From assembly GCF_055900595.2 (NCBI RefSeq), contig NZ_CM148325.1: a stretch of 64,000 bases of DNA; one strand, 5' to 3'. The notes beneath the pieces are model-generated. The model did not search any database. It had not been told where the DNA came from and saw only the letters and a list, made by a program, of their open reading frames with translations. The position numbers and the translations under genes are program-made. Shown here in pieces: positions 11,983-50,603 of the stretch (its first letter is position 1; each line of letters starts with the position of its first letter).

Positions 11983-12213
11983 TTATAACCTTGGTTTATA
12001 AGGACTGTTACGAACGTCTAAGCGGTAATGCGCTCTTGCTGTTTCGTCTTTAACTTGCTGAATTTCCGGACGCAGGGCGTCAATATCCTGTTGCAGTTGA
12101 TTAATTTTGTTATTCAATGCCTGAATATCATGTTCCAGGTGTTCAATTTTGGCATTGCTGGTACAGCCAACAAGATACAGCGCCAGCGGAATGGATAAGA
12201 TAAGTTTGTTCAT
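11983..12213 (-). CDS. Lpp-like coiled-coil lipoprotein (76 aa)
   Basis: ATG at 12213; signal peptide plus lipobox (LVGCTSN); heptad-repeat alpha-helical body resembling Braun lipoprotein. Confidence 0.6.
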   Translation of the reverse strand: MNKLILSIPLALYLVGCTSNAKIEHLEHDIQALNNKINQLQQDIDALRPEIQQVKDETARAHYRLDVRNSPYKPRL

Positions 12214-12230
12214 TATGAATTCCAGAACCG

Positions 12231-12488
12231 TCATTCCGCATACATACGCAAGCAGCGCAGGCAATCAAAATAGTCCTGAGCATCAAGACGCGTATTGGCT
12301 CTGTTAGCTTCGGATTTTGCCGCATAGATTTGCGGGCGTAATGCTTTCATATCCTGCTCAAGCCGGGCGATTTTGGCATTTAATGTTTGCACATTGCTCG
12401 CCAGCTGATTGACCTTTTGCTCATTGACGCAGCCGCTGAGCAAGCAGGTTGCCAGAACAACAGCCCCCACGGTGAAAATCGTTTTCAT
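12231..12488 (-). CDS. yqhH: Lpp-like outer-membrane lipoprotein YqhH
   Basis: 85-aa ORF with lipobox LSGCVNE and coiled-coil body; position matches yqhH next to yqhG. Confidence 0.75.
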
Positions 12489-40042: not shown

Positions 40043-41392
40043 TTGGCGGGTTTTAACATCAAACATTGGTTTGCAGATGGCGCGTTTCGCACCATTATTC
40101 GCAATAGCGCCTGGTTAGGCTCCAGTAATGTCGTGAGCGCTTTGCTGGGTCTGTTGGCGCTCTCGTGTGCCGGTAAAGGGATGACGCCCGCCATGTTTGG
40201 CGTACTGGTGATTGTGCAATCGTACGCCAAGTCGATCAGCGATTTTATTAAGTTTCAGACATGGCAGTTGGTGGTGCAGTACGGAACGCCAGCCTTGACC
40301 AACAATAATCCGCAGCAATTTCGCAATGTCGTCTCATTTTCCTTCTCGTTGGATATCGTCAGCGGCGCGGTGGCGATTGTCGGCGGCATTGCCTTACTCC
40401 CTTTTCTTTCCCATTCATTAGGTCTGGATGACCAAAGCTTTTGGCTGGCAGCGCTGTATTGCACGCTCATTCCTTCAATGGCTTCCTCCACGCCGACCGG
40501 CATTCTGCGTGCGGTAGATAGCTTCGACTTAATTGCTGTACAGCAGGCGACGAAACCTTTTCTGCGCGCAGCGGGGAGCGTCGTTGCCTGGTATTTTGAC
40601 TTTGGTTTTGCGGGTTTTGTTATTGCCTGGTACGCCTCGAATCTTGTTGGCGGCACCATGTACTGGTGGTTTGCCGCACGTGAATTACGCCGCAGAAATA
40701 TCCATAACGCGTTCAAATTGAATCTGTTTGAGTCTGCCCGACACATCAAAGGCGCGTGGAGTTTTGTCTGGTCAACCAACATTGCCCATTCCATCTGGTC
40801 GGCGCGTAATTCGTGCAGCACAGTGTTGGTGGGGATCGTGTTAGGACCCGCTGCCGCCGGGTTATTTAAAATCGCCATGACATTCTTCGACGCCGCCGGA
40901 ACGCCAGCGGGTTTACTAGGTAAAAGTTTTTACCCAGAGGTGATGCGTTTAGATCCGCGCACCACCAGACCGTGGTTGTTAGGCGTGAAGTCCGGTTTAC
41001 TGGCGGGCGGAATCGGTATTCTGGTGGCGCTCGCGGTGTTGATCGTCGGCAAGCCGCTCATTTCGCTGGTGTTTGGCGTTAAGTATCTCGAAGCGTATGA
41101 CCTGATTCAGGTGATGCTGGGCGCAATTGTGATTTCGATGCTGGGCTTCCCACAGGAGTCATTGCTATTGATGGCGGGAAAACAGCGTGCTTTTCTCGTG
41201 GCGCAAACCATCGCCTCAATCGGCTACATCGTATTGCTGTTCATGTTCTGTCATCTGTTTGGCGTGCTGGGGGCTGCATTTGCTTACTTCGCTGGGCAAT
41301 GTCTGGATGTGGTGCTCTCGCTAATTCCAACCTTAAAGGCATTTTTTCAGCGCCATTCCTTGCTTTATAACGCAGCCGGAGAGAAATCCTGA
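40043..41392 (+). CDS. yghQ: Polytopic membrane protein YghQ (MOP/Wzx-like flippase family), full length here
   Basis: 449-aa ORF with about 12 predicted TM helices; TTG start as given by the ORF track (true start uncertain); stop overlaps the next ORF (TGATG). Confidence 0.75.
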   Translation: MAGFNIKHWFADGAFRTIIRNSAWLGSSNVVSALLGLLALSCAGKGMTPAMFGVLVIVQSYAKSISDFIKFQTWQLVVQYGTPALTNNNPQQFRNVVSFSFSLDIVSGAVAIVGGIALLPFLSHSLGLDDQSFWLAALYCTLIPSMASSTPTGILRAVDSFDLIAVQQATKPFLRAAGSVVAWYFDFGFAGFVIAWYASNLVGGTMYWWFAARELRRRNIHNAFKLNLFESARHIKGAWSFVWSTNIAHSIWSARNSCSTVLVGIVLGPAAAGLFKIAMTFFDAAGTPAGLLGKSFYPEVMRLDPRTTRPWLLGVKSGLLAGGIGILVALAVLIVGKPLISLVFGVKYLEAYDLIQVMLGAIVISMLGFPQESLLLMAGKQRAFLVAQTIASIGYIVLLFMFCHLFGVLGAAFAYFAGQCLDVVLSLIPTLKAFFQRHSLLYNAAGEKS

Positions 41393-42228
41393 TGATGAGA
41401 AAATATTTCCCGCTTGAGGCTAGCGAGCGTCTATTTGTTGCGATTGAAGAAGATGATGTCGTTGATGCACAGGTCAGTTTGCCGCCGACTATCGCACTAA
41501 GTTGTACCACCGAAATCATCCATGATAATTACGCGTTATGCCTGAAATTCTGGCTGGATGGTGTTAATCGTCAGGAGCTACTGCGTTTAATCCGCAAACA
41601 GGCGAAAGGCGATGAGCTGACGACAGACGAGCGCAAAAAGTATAAATACATGCGAGCGCGCTACAAGCATCTGCGCTTTGCGCAACGGCTGTATTTAAAG
41701 AAGCATCAGGCCGGATTTTTATTCGGCAAAACGACCGTTTTTTTGGGGCGTTTTCAGGACGGCTTTCGTAACGGTAAGAAAAATATTGTGTCGTATTACG
41801 GCAACCTGTTACGGGTTTATTTAAGCTCTCCGGTCTGGTCGTTGGTGAACTATTCATTACGCCATAGCCAGTTAGAAAGCGTAAGCGGTTTTATTGCCTA
41901 TCGGCAAAAGCAAATGCATACCCTGAAAGAGATAATTGCCAAACCGCGACTAACTGGCAGGGAATTTCATGATGTGCGAAAAATCATCAGCCAGCAGGTT
42001 TCTTATTACGACACCCTAAGATCGCTTGATCCTGAAAATAAAGAGGCGTTACAGATTTCCCGCTTCCTCGCCGCCATTAATGGCCTGATGGGGGATAAAC
42101 ACGACGACATGGTGGCGGATGATATGGAAAACCGCCAGTCGTATGATGCACCGATGGCGCTGGATAGCGATATTCGTCAGCGCTTAGAACTGCTGATTTC
42201 GCGTTTCCCACTCTATCCGGAGCAATAA
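41392..42228 (+). CDS. Hypothetical soluble protein (278 aa), coupled to yghQ
   Basis: Start overlaps the yghQ stop; stop overlaps the next start (TAATG); no motif recognised by eye. Confidence 0.6.
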   Translation: MMRKYFPLEASERLFVAIEEDDVVDAQVSLPPTIALSCTTEIIHDNYALCLKFWLDGVNRQELLRLIRKQAKGDELTTDERKKYKYMRARYKHLRFAQRLYLKKHQAGFLFGKTTVFLGRFQDGFRNGKKNIVSYYGNLLRVYLSSPVWSLVNYSLRHSQLESVSGFIAYRQKQMHTLKEIIAKPRLTGREFHDVRKIISQQVSYYDTLRSLDPENKEALQISRFLAAINGLMGDKHDDMVADDMENRQSYDAPMALDSDIRQRLELLISRFPLYPEQ

Positions 42229-42788
42229 TGCCATCTCGTTGGATTTTCGCTCTGATCATCGCACTCTTAGCGCCAGGCGCGGTGGCACACAATTTCGTCA
42301 CTGGTAAAACGGTTACCCCTGTTTATATCCAGGAAGGCGGTGAGTTGCTTCTGAATAGCGACGACGAAATTCACTACCAAAAGTGGAACAGCACACAGCT
42401 GGCGGGAAAAGTCCGCATTATTCAGTATATCGCCGGGCGTAAGTCGGCGAAGAAAAAGAACTCACTGTTAATTAAAGCGGTTGAAGCGGCAAACTTTCCG
42501 CAGGATCGTTTTCAGCCCACCACCATTGTGAACACCGATGATGCCATCTTTGGTACCGACTATTTTGTCGTTGGCAAAATCGAAAAAAATAAACGCCGCT
42601 ATCCATGGGCGCAATTCGTTATTGACGGCAATGGACAGGGACGTGTTGCCTGGCGCTTGCCGGAGCAGAGTTCAACCATTCTGGTGCTGAATAAAAACGG
42701 GCAAATTCAGTGGGCAAAGGACGGCAGCCTGACGCCGGAAGAGGTAGATCATGTCATTGCGCTGGCGCAGAAGCTGATCAATGAATAA
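42228..42788 (+). CDS. Secreted/periplasmic protein (186 aa), possibly YtfJ-like
   Basis: Cleavable signal peptide MPSRWIFALIIALLAPGAVAHN; translationally coupled to the upstream ORF. Confidence 0.6.
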   Translation: MPSRWIFALIIALLAPGAVAHNFVTGKTVTPVYIQEGGELLLNSDDEIHYQKWNSTQLAGKVRIIQYIAGRKSAKKKNSLLIKAVEAANFPQDRFQPTTIVNTDDAIFGTDYFVVGKIEKNKRRYPWAQFVIDGNGQGRVAWRLPEQSSTILVLNKNGQIQWAKDGSLTPEEVDHVIALAQKLINE

Positions 42789-42818
42789 AAAACTCAAAGG
42801 ATTGAGGGCGTTAGTGAG

Positions 42819-43889
42819 ATGAAGCTGGTTGAACACTACATCATGCGTGGTACGCGCCGTCTGGTGCTGATTATCGTCGGTTTTCTGATCTTTATTTTCG
42901 CCAGCTACTCCGCACAGCGTTATCTGACCGAAGCGGCAAATGGGACATTAGCTCTTGATGTTGTGCTGGATATCGTTTTCTACAAAGTGCTGATTGCACT
43001 GGAGATGCTGTTACCTGTTGGACTATATGCTTCAGTTGGCGTGACGCTAGGGCAAATGTATACCGACTCGGAAATTACCGCTATCTCCGCGGCGGGGGGC
43101 AGTCCGGGACGCTTGTACAAAGCCGTTCTTTATCTGGCGATACCGCTAAGTATTTTTGTCACCCTTCTGTCGATGTATGGTCGTCCGTGGGCTTATGCGC
43201 AGATTTATCAACTGGAGCAACAGTCACAGTCGGAGCTGGATGTTCGCCAGTTGCGGGCAAAGAAATTTAACACTAACGATAACGGACGAATGATCCTTTC
43301 GCAGACGGTTGATCAGGATAATAATCGCCTGACTGACGCGCTGATTTATACTTCTACTGCCAATCGAACCCGCATTTTCCGCGCCCGTTCGGTTGATGTG
43401 GTTGACCCATCACCTGAGAAACCGACCGTTATGTTGCATAACGGGACCGCCTATCTTCTCGATCATCAGGGGCGTGACGACAACGAACAGATCTACCGTA
43501 ATCTGCAATTACATCTGAATCCGCTGGATCAAAGCCCTAACGTCAAACGCAAAGCAAAATCGGTCACGGAGCTGGCGCGCTCCGCCTTTCCTGCCGATCA
43601 TGCCGAACTGCAATGGCGACAAAGCCGTGGCCTGACAGCATTGTTGATGGCGCTGCTGGCCATTTCATTAAGTCGGGTAAAACCGCGGCAAGGGCGATTT
43701 TCAACGTTATTGCCACTGACGTTGCTGTTTATTGCCATTTTTTATGGCGGCGACGTCTGCCGTACGCTGGTGGCTAACGGCGCGATTCCCCTCATTCCTG
43801 GTTTGTGGTTAGTACCCGGACTCATGCTAATGGGCCTGCTGATGCTGGTCGCACGCGACTTCTCTTTGCTGCAGAAATTTTCCCGATGA
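42819..43889 (+). CDS. LptF/LptG-family (YjgP/YjgQ) permease paralogue, first of a pair
   Basis: 356-aa ORF with N-terminal MKLVEHYIMRGTRRLVLIIVGFLIFIF resembling LptF/LptG; predicted TM helices flanking a periplasmic domain. Confidence 0.7.
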   Translation: MKLVEHYIMRGTRRLVLIIVGFLIFIFASYSAQRYLTEAANGTLALDVVLDIVFYKVLIALEMLLPVGLYASVGVTLGQMYTDSEITAISAAGGSPGRLYKAVLYLAIPLSIFVTLLSMYGRPWAYAQIYQLEQQSQSELDVRQLRAKKFNTNDNGRMILSQTVDQDNNRLTDALIYTSTANRTRIFRARSVDVVDPSPEKPTVMLHNGTAYLLDHQGRDDNEQIYRNLQLHLNPLDQSPNVKRKAKSVTELARSAFPADHAELQWRQSRGLTALLMALLAISLSRVKPRQGRFSTLLPLTLLFIAIFYGGDVCRTLVANGAIPLIPGLWLVPGLMLMGLLMLVARDFSLLQKFSR

Positions 43890-44965
43890 ATGTTTTCAGC
43901 CGCTATTTAATCCGTCATCTCTTTCTCGGTTTTGCCGCCGCCGCAGGGCTATTGCTGCCGCTTTTTACCACCTTCAACCTGATTAACGAACTGGATGATG
44001 TCGGCCCGGGCGGTTATCGCTGGACCCAGGCGGTGCTGGTGGTGCTGATGACCTTACCGCGCACACTGGTCGAACTTTCGCCGTTTATCGCCTTATTGGG
44101 AGGGATTGTCGGCCTGGGGCAACTATCGAAAAACAGTGAGCTTACCGCCATTCGCAGCACGGGGTTTTCTATCTTCCGTATTGCACTGGTGGCGCTGGTT
44201 GCCGGGATATTGTGGACTGTTTCGTTAGGCGCGATAGATGAGTGGGTGGCGTCGCCATTGCAGCAACAGGCGCTGCAAATCAAATCGACTGCCACCGCGT
44301 TGGGGGAGGACGATGACATTACCGGCAATATGCTTTGGGCCAGGCGCGGTAATGAATTTGTGACGGTGAAATCGCTGAACGAGCAGGGCCAGCCTGTGGG
44401 CGTGGAGATATTTCATTATCGCGACGATCTCTCGCTCGAATCCTACATTTTTGCACGCAGTGCCTCCATTGAAGACGACAAAACATGGATCCTGCATGGT
44501 GTGAATCATAAAAAATGGTTGAATGGCAAAGAAACGCTGGAAACATCAGATAATCTTACCTGGCAATCGGCCTTCACCAGTATGAATCTTGAAGAGTTAT
44601 CGATGCCGGGAAATACTTTTTCTGTCCGTCAACTTAATCATTACATCCATTATTTGCAGGAAACTGGGCAACCCAGCAGCGAATACCGCCTTGCACTGTG
44701 GGAAAAACTGGGACAACCCATCCTGACCCTGGCGATGATTTTGCTGGCTGTGCCGTTTACCTTTAGTGCCCCGCGTTCGCCTGGGATGGGTAGCCGTCTC
44801 GCTGTAGGCGTCATCGTGGGCTTACTTACCTGGATCAGCTATCAAATCATGGTCAATCTGGGATTGCTATTTGCGTTGAGCGCACCTGTTACCGCGCTCG
44901 GTTTACCGGTAGCGTTTGTGCTGGTGGCGTTGAGCCTGGTGTATTGGTATGACAGACAACATTAA
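43886..44965 (+). CDS. LptF/LptG-family (YjgP/YjgQ) permease paralogue, second of a pair
   Basis: ATG at 43886 overlaps the upstream stop (ATGA); MNVFSRYLIRHLFLGFAAAAGLLLPLFT... typical LptG-like N-terminus; 359 aa. Confidence 0.7.
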   Translation: MNVFSRYLIRHLFLGFAAAAGLLLPLFTTFNLINELDDVGPGGYRWTQAVLVVLMTLPRTLVELSPFIALLGGIVGLGQLSKNSELTAIRSTGFSIFRIALVALVAGILWTVSLGAIDEWVASPLQQQALQIKSTATALGEDDDITGNMLWARRGNEFVTVKSLNEQGQPVGVEIFHYRDDLSLESYIFARSASIEDDKTWILHGVNHKKWLNGKETLETSDNLTWQSAFTSMNLEELSMPGNTFSVRQLNHYIHYLQETGQPSSEYRLALWEKLGQPILTLAMILLAVPFTFSAPRSPGMGSRLAVGVIVGLLTWISYQIMVNLGLLFALSAPVTALGLPVAFVLVALSLVYWYDRQH

Positions 44966-44999
44966 ACCCGCCGTGGCGCAACACCACAGCGGGCTCACA

Positions 45000-46172
45000 T
45001 TACTGCTTCAGAGTAGCGAACGCTTGAATGATGGCATCAATTTGCTCACGACTGTGGGCAGCGTTTACGCTACAGCGCAGCAGCGTGATGCCTGCAGGCG
45101 CGGCAGGTGGCAGGATAAGATTCACATAAACGCCCAGCGAAATAAGCTCGCGCCAGATGCGTAAACCTTCCTCTTTCGAACCGATTATTACTGGCACTAC
45201 CGGGCTAATATGTGAACTTAACTCATAATCCAGTTTTTGCAGACCGTCATACAGATGGTTGGCATTATCCATCAGCTTTTGCCGCAACTCTGGTTGTGAG
45301 GCAATGGTTCTTAACGACGAGCGCACGGTCGCAATGCAGGACGGAGAAGGAGAGGCGGTAAAAATATACGGGCGGCTGCCGTAGCGCAACACTTCCATCG
45401 CTTCCGAACCGACAGCAAAACCGCCAATCGAGGCCAGACTTTTACTGAAGGTACCAACGATAATATCCACATCATCTTCAACGCCAACGGCTTCAGCCAG
45501 TCCGCGCCCCGTTGCGCCTAACACGCCAAACGAATGCGCTTCATCGACAATCAAATAACCACCGAGACGACGTTTGATATCAACAATTTCCGCCAGCGGC
45601 GCAACGTCACCGAGCATACTGTAGATGCCTTCAACGATGATAATCGCCTCTTTTGCCCGTTCACCGAGGCGAACCATGCGCCGTTCCAGATCTTTAGCAT
45701 CGTTATGGCGGAAACGAATAATTTCCGCGCCACCGAGAGAACAGGCGTCATAAATACTGGCGTGGCTGTCGGCATCCAGTAACACCACGGCGTTATGGTC
45801 GGCAAGTGCGCTGATGACGCCTAAATTAGCGGTATAACCGGTTGAAAAAACGATAGCGGTAGGGCGATTAAAAAACTCGGCGATCTCTTTCTCTAACGCC
45901 AGATGCGGCGCATAACTGCCGTTTGCCATACGAGAACCGGTGGTGCCGGTGCCTTGGGCCGCTAACGCTGCCTGACCTTCGGCGATGGCATCATGATTAA
46001 AGGTTAAACCGAGATAATTATTGGTCCCGGCCAGAATCACTTTTTTATTGCCGATCCGACCTTCGGTGGCGGAATACACTTCATCAATACAGGTGCCAAA
46101 CGGTGTTAACCCGTTGTCACTAAATTGCAGTCGCTCGCCAGCAAGGCGCGCATATTTATCGTATAGCCCCAT
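45000..46172 (-). CDS. PLP-dependent alpha-oxoamine synthase, serine-palmitoyltransferase-like
   Basis: 390-aa ORF with PLP-lysine motif GTFSKSLASIGG and DEAHSFG motif characteristic of SPT/KBL/BioF enzymes. Confidence 0.8.
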   Translation of the reverse strand: MGLYDKYARLAGERLQFSDNGLTPFGTCIDEVYSATEGRIGNKKVILAGTNNYLGLTFNHDAIAEGQAALAAQGTGTTGSRMANGSYAPHLALEKEIAEFFNRPTAIVFSTGYTANLGVISALADHNAVVLLDADSHASIYDACSLGGAEIIRFRHNDAKDLERRMVRLGERAKEAIIIVEGIYSMLGDVAPLAEIVDIKRRLGGYLIVDEAHSFGVLGATGRGLAEAVGVEDDVDIIVGTFSKSLASIGGFAVGSEAMEVLRYGSRPYIFTASPSPSCIATVRSSLRTIASQPELRQKLMDNANHLYDGLQKLDYELSSHISPVVPVIIGSKEEGLRIWRELISLGVYVNLILPPAAPAGITLLRCSVNAAHSREQIDAIIQAFATLKQ

Positions 46173-46420
46173 TATTTATTCTCCAGCCATGGAAGTAGTG
46201 TTTCCATTAATTGCGCAGGGGTTTTGACATCCAGCAGAATATTAATAGGAATGGAAATATCGAATCTGTCTTCCAGCATCATTAAGAGATCCATCACTTT
46301 GATCGACTCCAGGCCAAGATCGTTGACGAGATCGCTGTCGGGCTTAATTTCCACACCGTTTTCGACCAAATCCTGTAAACAGGAAAGGATGTAATCCATT
46401 ACTATTTCACGATTTACCAT
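46172..46420 (-). CDS. Dedicated acyl carrier protein
   Basis: 82-aa acidic ORF with phosphopantetheine-site motif DLGLESI; stop overlaps the SPT-like gene start. Confidence 0.75.
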   Translation of the reverse strand: MVNREIVMDYILSCLQDLVENGVEIKPDSDLVNDLGLESIKVMDLLMMLEDRFDISIPINILLDVKTPAQLMETLLPWLENK

Positions 46421-46451
46421 AGAAACGTTAACACACCTTTAAACAAGACAA

Positions 46452-47366
46452 TCAAAATAGCCCGTTGCGTAATGCGTGTTCCAGGCTAATCCCGGGAAAC
46501 CAATTAATATCTTCAGAAATACGGTTATTACTTGCTGACCAGTCGGCGTGGGTTAATTCACGGATTTTCGAGCGGGTCAGCATAGGTTCTTTACCTGCCA
46601 GGCGACTCAACGCGGTACTGATATCCGCAAGGCAGGTGAGTACCGACAGAGGAATACCAACCATTCGAACGGAACCGCAACGGGCGTCGGCGGCAAGTTG
46701 CTGTACGCGTTGCCAGTCATAGCCGCCGGCGACGCCATCGCATAATTCATAGGTTTGCGTCTGTACAGTTTCGGCGCTTAACCACTGCCCCACGGCTTGC
46801 GCGAAATCGGTGACGTGCAGGAAAGAGAGCTGTGTATCTGGCGCACCAAGTCGTGGCAGCAGGCCGCGCAGCATCCAGTCAAACAGCGGTTTTAACTCTT
46901 TATCGCCGGGACCATACACGGCTGTCGGGCGAAAAATGCCCAGCGTAATTTCGTCAGCCATTGCGGTCAGTCGTTGTTCGGCGACGTGTTTGGAATTTGC
47001 GTACCAGGAGAGTTCGGGATGACGCGCCGCCAGCGAAGAGATAAACAGAAAACGTTGGCAAAAGCCGCTCTCTTTTGCCGCTTGCATCAGGCGCAGGCTG
47101 CCGTCAACGTTACAGCGGGTAAAAATCTCTTCTTTGTGTCCGCGCACTTGTCCGGCGCAATGGACCACCGCGCTGGCTCCGGCAACCAGTTCGCTAAGCG
47201 AATGTGTATCTTCCAGCGAACCGCGCACCCAGATGAGATTATCATTGACGTGAGCGCGGGCAGTACGCGTCAATGCGCGAACGTGAAAGCCGCGGGCGAG
47301 CAGGTTATCGATAATATATTTACCGATAAACCCGGTAGCGCCCGTCACCGCGACAGTTTGATTCAT
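46452..47366 (-). CDS. NAD(P)-dependent epimerase/dehydratase-family reductase (extended SDR)
   Basis: 304-aa ORF with Rossmann motif VTGATGFIGKYI and YxxxK motif (YANSK); start overlaps the FAAL stop (ATGA). Confidence 0.75.
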   Translation of the reverse strand: MNQTVAVTGATGFIGKYIIDNLLARGFHVRALTRTARAHVNDNLIWVRGSLEDTHSLSELVAGASAVVHCAGQVRGHKEEIFTRCNVDGSLRLMQAAKESGFCQRFLFISSLAARHPELSWYANSKHVAEQRLTAMADEITLGIFRPTAVYGPGDKELKPLFDWMLRGLLPRLGAPDTQLSFLHVTDFAQAVGQWLSAETVQTQTYELCDGVAGGYDWQRVQQLAADARCGSVRMVGIPLSVLTCLADISTALSRLAGKEPMLTRSKIRELTHADWSASNNRISEDINWFPGISLEHALRNGLF

Positions 47367-49084
47367 GCCAGGGATTCCTGCACATGAAGGCTTGCAGCAT
47401 AAGCCTTCTGATAACGTTTTTTCGCTTCCGCACGGGCAGGCTTGCCGGAGGACGTTCGGGGAATACTGTGGGGCGGCAACAGATCGATAGCCGCGGTTAC
47501 GCCAAATTCGCTTTGGATCCGTGCTGCCAGTGCGTGGATAAGCTGCCCACGACGTTCTTCGTCGCTGATCCTACACTGGATCTGCAGAATGATTTTTTCC
47601 TGGGCGGTAACAAAAGCAATCGCATCGCCAGAATGAATTTCCGGTTCCTGTTCCGCAATATATTCAATATCCTGCGGCCAGATATTACGGCCACGAATAA
47701 TAATCAGATCTTTAATGCGTCCGGTGACATACAGATAACCGTCCAGCAGATAACCGAGGTCGCCGGTATCTAACCAGCCCGTCGCGGCAATCTCGTCTTG
47801 CGAAACCTGGTCGCCAAAGTAACCGCTCATCAGGCTGGGGCCGGAGATGCAAATATGGCCTACCACACGTTCCGCGACCGGCATACCTGCTTCATTGCGG
47901 ATTTCAATGCCATGTTCCGGCAACGCTTTACCGCAGTTGACGAAAGTCGATACGGCGCGTGTTTCAGCACCCGGCGCGACGGCTTTGCCCTGATATTCAA
48001 GGATGTCGCGATCCACTTCGTTAACCACAACCCCGGAGGCTTCATCAGAGAAGCTGACAGCCAGCGCATTTTCTGCCAGTCCGTAGCACGGCATGAACGT
48101 TTTATCGTCAAAGTTAACCTGACGGAAACATTCAGCGAATTGATGGAGTTGTTCTGCGGAGATGGGTTCTGCACCAATACCAGCGACGCGCCAGCAGGAA
48201 AGATCCAGTTCAGCGAGATCTTTTTCATTCACGCGGCGCTGGCACAATTCATAGCCAAACGGCGGCGCAACGGAAACGGTGCCGCGATTTTTACTGATCA
48301 ATTTAAGCCATTGCAGAGGACGCATGGCAAAATCCTGAGTGCGCAAATAATCTACTGAAAGCTGCGTGGCGACGGGGGTCAGGAGAAAGCCGACCAGTCC
48401 CATATCATGGTAGAAAGGCAGCCAGGAGACGCAGCGGTCGCCAGGGCGTAATTTAATGCCATCGTGGCTTATAGCACGTAGATTAGCCATCACTTCGCGA
48501 TGGGTGATAATGACGCCACGGGGAAAACGGGTGCTGCCGGAGGTGTACTGGAGGTAGGCGATATCGTTCGGAACTGGATGCTGGAGTGCAACATCGGCTT
48601 CCGGTAATGCCTTAAACCAGGCGTGGCTTAAAACATGTAATTCGGGGTTGTTATGCGTAGCGGCATTGACCAGTGGCAACCACTCATCACCAGTGATAAT
48701 GGCTGCGGGCTGGCAACTTGCCAGTAAACCCTGCAGTTTGGCGCTCCAGGAATCCCGCTGACCGATGCCCATTGGAATCGCCAACGGGACGGCGACTAAG
48801 CCGGCATACTGGCAGGAAAAAAAAGCCTCTACGAACCCGCTACTGGTTTCGGCAATCAGCGCCACGCGATCGCCTTTTTTCAGGTTCAGCGATAACAACC
48901 GCTTCGCACCAGCTTCGGCACGCGCTTTTAACGTCTGATATTCCAGTTGATCTTCAAGTTGGCAACGTCTGTCATAAAAATTCATTCCGGCGCTACTCAG
49001 AGCGGCGTAGTCCAAAGCATCAACCAGCGTTGGAAAATCGGCATAGCGCATAGGTAGGGAATGCGTAAAGATTTTATTAGACAT
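47363..49084 (-). CDS. Fatty acyl-AMP ligase / acyl-ACP synthetase (FAAL-type adenylating enzyme)
   Basis: Start set at ATG 49084 (MSNKIFTHSLPMRYADFPTL...; the ORF track's 49111 start is TTG); AMP-binding motif YTSGSTRFPRGV resembling FadD32-type FAALs. Confidence 0.8.
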   Translation of the reverse strand: MSNKIFTHSLPMRYADFPTLVDALDYAALSSAGMNFYDRRCQLEDQLEYQTLKARAEAGAKRLLSLNLKKGDRVALIAETSSGFVEAFFSCQYAGLVAVPLAIPMGIGQRDSWSAKLQGLLASCQPAAIITGDEWLPLVNAATHNNPELHVLSHAWFKALPEADVALQHPVPNDIAYLQYTSGSTRFPRGVIITHREVMANLRAISHDGIKLRPGDRCVSWLPFYHDMGLVGFLLTPVATQLSVDYLRTQDFAMRPLQWLKLISKNRGTVSVAPPFGYELCQRRVNEKDLAELDLSCWRVAGIGAEPISAEQLHQFAECFRQVNFDDKTFMPCYGLAENALAVSFSDEASGVVVNEVDRDILEYQGKAVAPGAETRAVSTFVNCGKALPEHGIEIRNEAGMPVAERVVGHICISGPSLMSGYFGDQVSQDEIAATGWLDTGDLGYLLDGYLYVTGRIKDLIIIRGRNIWPQDIEYIAEQEPEIHSGDAIAFVTAQEKIILQIQCRISDEERRGQLIHALAARIQSEFGVTAAIDLLPPHSIPRTSSGKPARAEAKKRYQKAYAASLHVQESLA

Positions 49085-49454
49085 ATACACCACGAAAAAA
49101 TTGGATATCAAAAATAAAATGACAATAATGCGGTGGATTATATAGGCATAAAAGATAAATGAGATAGTATTTTCATCAGTGTGAAAATGAACATTGATTT
49201 AAATAATGAGTTTGAGTTTTTTGTTTTTATTGTGAATGATATTTAATTTATGAATGTATTAAGAAGAAGCCTTGTCCGGTCGCCTTAAATCGACAAAAGG
49301 CATTGTGGCGCTTCTGTGTAGTCTCTGACCTTATCGTAATCATTAATAAATGCTATTTATTCGTCGTTTGTATTCATTGGGTTGATTATTAAGGTGCCGT
49401 TCGTTGCTGTTGCAACCTGTTTGTCACCGTTAATTATTTGTTACCCACAGAACT
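49085..49454. promoter_or_regulatory. AT-rich divergent intergenic region (probable promoters for the FAAL operon and yghO)
   Basis: 370 bp of strongly AT-rich sequence with poly-A/T tracts between divergent genes; no individual promoter element is called. Confidence 0.4.
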
Positions 49455-50597
49455 ATGGAATGCGATCTGCTGATGATTAAAATTGAAAAAGTAATTAATA
49501 AAAATGACCTTAAGGCATTTATCGCTTTTCCGTCATCACTTTATCCCGACGATCCAAACTGGATACCCCCTTTATTCATTGAACGCAACGAGCATTTGTC
49601 TGCGAAAAATCCGGGGACGGACCATATCATCTGGCAGGCGTGGGTGGCAAAAAAAGCCGGGCAGATAGTTGGGCGAATTACCGCGCAAATCGATACCTTG
49701 CACCGTGAGCGTTACGGTGAAGATACCGGTCATTTCGGCATGATTGACGCCATTGATGATCCGCAGGTTTTTGCCGCGTTGTTTGGCGCAGCGGAAGCGT
49801 GGTTGAAGTCACAAGGTGCAAGTAAGATCAGCGGTCCTTTCAGCCTGAATATCAATCAGGAAAGCGGATTACTGATTGAAGGTTTCGATACACCACCCTG
49901 TGCGATGATGCCGCACGGTAAACCGTGGTATGCCGCGCATATTGAACAATTGGGTTATCACAAAGGCATTGATTTACTAGCGTGGTGGATGCAGCGAACC
50001 GATCTCACTTTCTCTCCGGCGCTAAAAAAACTGATGGATCAGGTGCGTAAGAAGGTGACCATTCGCTGCATCAATCGCCAGCGGTTTGCCGAAGAGATGC
50101 AGATCCTGCGTGAGATTTTCAACTCTGGCTGGCAGCACAACTGGGGATTTGTGCCGTTTACCGAACATGAATTCGCGACTATGGGCGATCAACTTAAATA
50201 TCTGGTGCCGGACGATATGATCTACATCGCTGAGATTGATTCTGCACCCTGCGCGTTTATTGTTGGCTTGCCAAACATCAACGAGGCGATTGCCGATCTG
50301 AACGGATCGCTCTTTCCCTTCGGCTGGGCAAAATTGCTGTGGCGTTTAAAAGTCAGCGGTGTGCGAACTGCGCGAGTACCGCTGATGGGCGTGCGGGACG
50401 AGTATCAGTTTAGCCGCATCGGCCCGGTGATTGCGCTGTTATTGATTGAAGCCTTACGCGATCCGTTTGCCCGCCGGAAGATCGATGCGCTGGAAATGTC
50501 ATGGATCCTCGAAACCAATACAGGCATGAATAACATGCTGGAACGCATTGGGGCAGAGCCGTACAAGCGTTACCGATTGTATGAAAAGCAGATTTGA
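49455..50597 (+). CDS. yghO: YghO, acyl-CoA N-acyltransferase-like protein, apparently full length
   Basis: 380-aa ORF (alternative start at ATG 49473); recognised as the full-length counterpart of the K-12 yghO remnant. Confidence 0.7.
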   Translation: MECDLLMIKIEKVINKNDLKAFIAFPSSLYPDDPNWIPPLFIERNEHLSAKNPGTDHIIWQAWVAKKAGQIVGRITAQIDTLHRERYGEDTGHFGMIDAIDDPQVFAALFGAAEAWLKSQGASKISGPFSLNINQESGLLIEGFDTPPCAMMPHGKPWYAAHIEQLGYHKGIDLLAWWMQRTDLTFSPALKKLMDQVRKKVTIRCINRQRFAEEMQILREIFNSGWQHNWGFVPFTEHEFATMGDQLKYLVPDDMIYIAEIDSAPCAFIVGLPNINEAIADLNGSLFPFGWAKLLWRLKVSGVRTARVPLMGVRDEYQFSRIGPVIALLLIEALRDPFARRKIDALEMSWILETNTGMNNMLERIGAEPYKRYRLYEKQI

Positions 50598-50603
50598 TGG
50601 CAG

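Follow-up and report, generated by a model that had tools for sequence, protein, structure and literature searches.

Hairpins shared by convergent genes form a described and prevalent class in Escherichia coli. Among them are the 'overlapping bidirectional terminators', which lack canonical features and for which a mechanism based on polymerase collisions has been proposed (Ju et al. 2019, as summarised in bioRxiv 10.1101/2022.10.23.513370). The junction between the lptG2 and spt genes resembles these elements by its convergent gene pair and its single shared hairpin. In such elements canonical features are not required on both strands; at the lptG2/spt junction one strand does look canonical. 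The 3′-end overlap, the Rho-independence and the collision dependence are properties attributed to the overlapping bidirectional terminators.

Classical bidirectional terminators, made of an A-tract, a hairpin and a U-tract (e.g. the pitB/yghT junction and the spt junctions of Pantoea A4 and Citrobacter youngae), likewise comprise one hairpin in a spacer of less than 50 bp. Unlike them, the lptG2/spt junction carries different sequences on its two flanks and is therefore only a half-symmetric element. In the spt sense, it is similar to E. coli Rho-independent terminators by its GC-rich 12-bp stem, short loop and immediate U-rich tail, as well as by its location, since it directly follows the stop codon that closes an operon. 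It differs from them in that only three U residues are contiguous, the tract is templated by the neighbouring gene and the opposite strand is devoid of U-tract. A GC-rich imperfect palindrome between convergent genes is also reminiscent of REP/BIME elements. This reading was rejected on the basis of the copy number, since the sequence is single copy both in the window (the whole 64,000-nucleotide stretch of DNA analysed here) and in the genomes, and is without similarity to a repeated family. A single match was found in the window at up to 3 mismatches, and the 54-mer of the window occupies a median of one place per genome.

The sphingolipid locus and its convergent junction

The window belongs to E. 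coli, and several complete genomes match it at 100% identity over a 2-kb stretch spanning the junction. On the plus strand, lptG2 (43886-44965; stop codon TAA at 44963-44965) is the last gene of its operon, while spt (45000-46172; stop codon TAA, reading TTA at 45000-45002) ends the operon of the minus strand. The two stop codons are separated by a 34-bp spacer (44966-44999; ACCCGCCGTGGCGCAACACCACAGCGGGCTCACA), so that the gene ends and the gap given by the first-pass annotation were exact. The identities that it had proposed, an LptG-like and a serine palmitoyltransferase (SPT)-like gene, were confirmed by profile searches, with scores above cut-off for LptG (NCBIfam TIGR04408, 307 bits for a cut-off of 240, plus a match to Pfam LptF_LptG) and for serine palmitoyltransferase (NCBIfam NF047599, 596 bits for a cut-off of 500).

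Upstream of lptG2, RefSeq annotation and profile searches placed four tightly packed plus-strand genes, coding for a YghQ-like MOP flippase (40043-41392), an unknown protein of 278 amino acids (41392-42228), a YtfJ family protein (42228-42788) and LptF2 (42819-43889; LptF profile match of 317 bits). The minus-strand operon comprises, upstream of spt, the genes acpR (acyl carrier protein, 46172-46420), epi (SDR/epimerase-family reductase, 46452-47366) and aasR (fatty acyl-AMP ligase, 47363-49051). The locus is flanked by pitB, yghT and yghS on one side and by yghO and glcC on the other. This context, together with the assignment of the two transport genes as the paralogues lptF2 and lptG2, led us to discard the housekeeping lptFG genes as an explanation. 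The convergence of lptF2-lptG2 on aasR-epi-acpR-spt is that of a known accessory sphingolipid/ceramide locus. In BL21(DE3), the synthesis genes aasR, epi, acpR, spt and aca (yghO) have been characterised, and the acpR-spt operon ends with spt (PMC9386255). The LptF/LptG paralogues lptF2 and lptG2 have been tied to sphingolipid export in Caulobacter, where cells survive the loss of lptF2/G2 only if spt is deleted, and the locus of E. coli UTI89 is drawn beside the Caulobacter one (bioRxiv 10.64898/2026.04.12.717747).

We found the junction in 4111 of 5426 complete E. coli genomes (about 76%). In K-12 MG1655, the entire segment is absent, and an IS5 is found between yghO and a truncated yghQ; therefore, the published 3′-end maps of K-12 cannot address this junction, and a literature search for Term-seq data yielded no dataset covering the spt/lptG2 locus. 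Several other features of the locus were noticed. It is present as a whole in the window, from the yghQ-like flippase gene through yghO/aca (40043-50597), and one copy of the junction is plasmid-borne. The 278-amino-acid ORF (41392-42228, plus strand) is translationally coupled between the flippase gene and the YtfJ-family gene and matched nothing in Pfam or NCBIfam; it may correspond to the LptC-like component described for Caulobacter, or be something different. In strain BS-04 the locus has decayed: yghQ is truncated, only frameshifted fragments remain of lptF2/lptG2 and of most of spt/epi/aasR, and the hairpin is deleted.

Folding and terminator features of the two strands

The imperfect palindrome that had been noted in the spacer is present at positions 44967-44993. 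Its arms CCCGCCGTGG (44967-44976) and CCACAGCGGG (44984-44993) differ from perfect complementarity by one C·A mismatch (C44972/A44988), and the palindrome can be lengthened to 12-nt arms (44967-44978 and 44982-44993) around a 3-nt centre at the cost of a second C·A mismatch (C44977/A44983). The longest exact run between the arms is 5 nt in the window allele, under the limit of an inverted-repeat search requiring an exact seed of at least 6 nt, which returned no pair at the spacer.

Folding of both RNA strands, which the first-pass annotation had proposed as a check of its shared hairpin, gave a hairpin on each strand, with strongly unequal stabilities (-27.7 kcal/mol on the minus strand versus -15.7 kcal/mol on the plus strand). 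In the spt-sense RNA (minus strand, 44967-44993), the core hairpin is a 12-bp stem (arms 44993-44982 and 44978-44967) including two U·G pairs and closed by a UUG loop (44981-44979), with a core energy of -22.0 kcal/mol. The UUUA found at 44963-44966 on this strand, complementary to the lptG2 stop codon and one adjacent base, can pair with UGAG (44997-44994), bringing the minus-strand stem to up to 16 bp. This uninterrupted stem has a z-score of -5.3, and none of 200 shuffled sequences was as stable. In the lptG2-sense RNA (plus strand, 44967-44993), the U·G pairs turn into two C·A mismatches and the hairpin consists of 5 + 4 bp with an effective 7-nt loop (core energy -14.6 kcal/mol; z = -3.2; 1 of 200 shuffles as stable). 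When all 46-nt windows of both strands of the 64 kb were folded, the minus-strand structure ranked as the third most stable locus (top 0.02%), whereas the value of the plus-strand structure was equalled by 4.9% of these windows.

The sequences following the stem are also different on the two strands. In a scan for the terminator consensus, no hit in 12 kb ranked above this site, which was called terminator-like on the minus strand and not on the plus strand. The U-rich tail of the spt-sense RNA (44956-44966, minus strand; UUUAAUGUUGU) is templated by the stop and last codons of lptG2. The part right after the stem, UUUAAUGUU, contains 6 U out of 9 residues, in accordance with the scan rule, and no more than three of its U residues are contiguous; its tail score nT is 3.03. 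The lptG2-sense tail CUCACAUUACUG is not U-rich (nT = 0.69), nor is the CTCACA which follows the stem on that strand (44994-44999). The symmetric A-tract/U-tract layout is thus absent, with AAA on the lptG2 side only and CTCACA on the spt side. A d'Aubenton-Carafa-type discriminant, computed with modern energies, was +16.9 for the spt-sense strand versus -52 for the lptG2-sense strand. A search of the region 43500-46500 against Rfam (E ≤ 10) gave no match in or near the spacer.

With its strong stem and U-rich tail, the spt-sense strand is predicted to be a canonical intrinsic terminator. Since the U-tract is templated by the stop and last codons of lptG2, the 3′ ends of the spt operon would be located at about 44958-44960, inside lptG2. 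The compact bidirectional terminator initially suggested for this spacer is therefore partly supported: in the spt sense the stem, the U-rich tail and the positive discriminant speak for it, whereas in the lptG2 sense the stem contains C·A mismatches, the U-tract is missing and the discriminant is negative. As canonical parts are lacking on the lptG2-sense strand, bidirectional termination would need a non-canonical route, which may be collision-driven or involve Rho or a pausing hairpin.

Translation may also bear on these structures. In the lptG2 sense, the stem begins 1 nt past the stop codon, compared with 6 nt for the core stem in the spt sense. A ribosome located at a stop codon would cover the 5′ arm, which should matter most on the lptG2 side. 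On the other side, the distance of 6 nt between the spt stop codon and the core stem is such that a closely coupled ribosome could interfere with the spt terminator.

Variation of the hairpin in Escherichia and in other genera

The variation of the junction was examined in eleven E. coli alleles, together with four further Escherichia lineages identified by means of the Spt protein. Most of the differences fall in the stem, and hardly any change is seen in the flanks of the spacer. At the 44972/44988 site, the C·A mismatch is replaced by C-G in the BL21-type allele and by T-A in another strain, while C-G or T-A are found at the 44977/44983 site in other strains. E. whittamii and a divergent E. 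coli lineage carry double changes, from G-C to A-T and from C-G to T-A, at two further pairs. In total, four pairs of the given stem structure have undergone compensatory changes on both sides. Pairing was maintained in 96.3% of the cells for the 16 pairs of the minus strand versus 90.2% for the 12 pairs of the plus strand, with slid controls at 31-53%. The RNAalifold consensus of 13 Escherichia sequences reached -31.3 kcal/mol (23 pairs) on the minus strand versus -14.9 kcal/mol (9 pairs) on the plus strand. On the spt side, UUUA(A/G)U... is kept in every Escherichia variant, and the TAAA belonging to this tail region is invariant; on the lptG2 side, no U-tract was found among the 13 Escherichia variants. 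The lptG2-sense hairpin is stable in all 13 of them, with energies from -14.6 to -24.6 kcal/mol.

The exact 54-mer of the window allele was found in 652 genomes and the BL21 allele in 1384. With a plus-strand stem of -20.8 kcal/mol for the BL21 allele, the plus-strand version of the window ranks among the weakest. Most E. coli genomes have the first mismatch repaired, as in the BL21 variant, so that the asymmetry in stem strength is smaller there than in the window.

The hairpin (44967-44993) appears as a polymorphism hot spot, since its 28 columns contain 7 of the 11 variable columns in a 102-column alignment of nine E. coli sequences. The polymorphisms include single-base indels in the loop and in the stem, and most of them make the palindrome more perfect. 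Quasipalindrome template-switch mutation would also yield changes of this kind. As these polymorphisms fit template switching too, the covariation is not a clean proof of selection on the RNA. In about 360 genomes (e.g. strains 3045 and A38), we also observed a divergent allele of the lptG2 3′ end (88-89% identity, 211-bp junction query; window 44930-44957). The divergence ends abruptly about 8 nt before the stop codon, after which the spacer and the end of spt are identical, which suggests a recombination breakpoint adjoining the hairpin.

In Citrobacter amalonaticus, C. youngae, three Pseudocitrobacter and Hafnia paralvei, spt and lptG2 also converge, across spacers of 44-90 bp. Each of these spacers contains one strong hairpin (-17 to -32 kcal/mol) with a sequence unrelated to that of the Escherichia hairpin. 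The arrangement is also kept in a Pluralibacter MAG with a spacer of 799 bp, which was left out of the folding. Where a different gene lies downstream of spt (Sodalis, Serratia, Mangrovibacter, Rosenbergiella and Pantoea, as well as Pseudomonas LS-2 and P. bohemica), a 12-16 bp hairpin was found within a few tens of nucleotides 3′ of spt in most of the enterobacterial loci that could be folded and in the two Pseudomonas. Some of these hairpins are bordered by canonical A/U tracts and some by none. The fact that a structure is maintained at the junction while its sequence changes favours a role in the RNA over a protein-binding site. A protein operator was accordingly regarded as unlikely, the junction hairpins of the other genera being unrelated in sequence. 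In Sodalis, Serratia sp. M24T3 and Rosenbergiella, lptG2 does not converge on spt but follows it, in the same orientation, at a distance of about 4.6 kb, and therefore the two modules of the locus have been rearranged during evolution.

Comparison with other convergent junctions of the window was restricted to the mappable ones, the annotation strain FDAARGOS_448 differing from the window upstream. The yqhA/gpr (39 bp), yqhC/yghB (39 bp) and pitB/yghT (48 bp) junctions each contain a single GC-rich hairpin of -19 to -24 kcal/mol, that of pitB/yghT having symmetric A/T tracts. The genes yghO (plus strand) and glcC (minus strand) also converge, with 6 bp between their stop codons (50598-50603). 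Of the short convergent junctions examined in the window, this is the only one lacking a hairpin (about -1 to -2 kcal/mol).

Models for termination at the junction

The hairpin of the junction is real and conserved, and it almost certainly has a function. We see in it an ordinary terminator hairpin, and for the spt operon a convincing one. We regard as likely, on the grounds of its predicted structure, that the element acts as the intrinsic terminator of aasR-epi-acpR-spt, whereas the stem with which it closes the lptF2-lptG2 operon is only weak and non-canonical. One GC-rich stem-loop would thus mark the 3′ boundary shared by the export-side operon ending in lptF2-lptG2 (plus strand) and the synthesis operon aasR-epi-acpR-spt (minus strand), with Rho-independent termination of the latter as its main function. 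RNA polymerase would be released about 7-9 nt past the spt-sense stem, inside the last codons of lptG2. The efficiency of this terminator may be modest, because its U-tract has only three contiguous U. In the lptG2 sense, the hairpin would probably be only a pause site or a stem protecting the 3′ end. Something else would then define where the lptG2 transcript ends, either collision with polymerases transcribing the opposite strand or Rho acting on the untranslated RNA antisense to spt; on the lptG2-sense strand, a stretch richer in C than in G, a possible Rho loading region, lies 120-240 nt downstream. The net result would be an asymmetric insulator, which efficiently prevents the synthesis operon from reading antisense into the exporter and restrains transcription in the opposite direction to a lesser extent. 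By analogy with Caulobacter, where lptF2/G2 can be lost only if spt has been deleted, we infer such an insulating role, and preventing the synthesis operon from being read antisense into an exporter gene would make biological sense.

The hairpin could instead be a true bidirectional element of the overlapping type, at which polymerases coming from both sides pause and are released by head-on and trailing collisions. No U-tract would be needed on the lptG2 side, and the model partly overlaps with the asymmetric terminator described above. The architecture described by Ju et al. 2019, as summarised in bioRxiv 10.1101/2022.10.23.513370, is also that of our junction, where two convergent genes share one hairpin within a very short spacer. 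The stability of the hairpin on both strands in all 13 Escherichia variants is in agreement with such a model, as are the junction hairpins of several other genera, which lack a U-tract on either side. However, the model works best for highly expressed pairs according to the same preprint, and the plus-strand stem of the window is unexceptional compared to the background (top 5%). In addition, the persistent U·G/C·A asymmetry and the one-sided U-tract point to selection acting mainly on the spt-sense RNA, and we consider a true bidirectional element to be a possible but rather doubtful explanation. Stable 3′ stem-loops are known stabilisers of mRNA in E. coli, and the hairpin might be non-terminating and only shield the 3′ ends of one or both mRNAs from 3′-5′ exonucleases, with termination or processing taking place further downstream. 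The C-rich stretch mentioned above, which could load Rho in the lptG2 sense, is compatible with this proposal. Yet the spt-sense stem is directly followed by a U-rich tail such as the terminator rules describe, and protection and termination are not mutually exclusive; a purely protective role therefore seems unlikely to us.

Least probable of all is a DNA-level feature devoid of RNA function, either a neutral quasipalindrome maintained by template switching or a palindromic protein-binding site. The clustering of 7 of 11 polymorphic columns in the hairpin, mostly perfecting the palindrome, is in its favour. Such palindrome-perfecting polymorphism is indeed the signature expected of quasipalindrome mutagenesis. 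On the other hand, other genera have hairpins of unrelated sequence at this junction, the palindrome lies precisely between two stop codons, an asymmetry of the G·U type is meaningful only in RNA, and neither a repeated copy nor a known motif was found. Returning to the asymmetric terminator, an extended version of it would be an insulator between synthesis and export that stops spt transcripts from running antisense into lptG2 while letting lptG2 transcription run on, or collide, and dampen spt, its strength being tuned between E. coli lineages by quasipalindrome mutations at the two mismatch sites. Stopping spt read-through would matter because loss of the exporter in the presence of active synthesis is toxic in Caulobacter. 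Taken as a whole, this scenario is speculative and very unlikely.

Considered alone, the element is of little importance, except that it marks the 3′ boundaries of two operons in the sphingolipid locus of E. coli, a locus under active study for both the biochemistry of spt/acpR/aasR and the transport function of lptF2/lptG2. For the cloning or expression of these operons, the predicted spt terminator overlaps the lptG2 stop codon and the junction is polymorphic, with several alleles differing in predicted stem strength. Elsewhere in the window, two tandem small ORFs coding for Lpp-like lipoproteins were noticed downstream of ygiQ (11983-12488, minus strand), one of them reading MNKLILSIPLALYLVGC... 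As only 41 bp separate ygiQ from yqhH in FDAARGOS_448, the first Lpp-like copy is variably present.
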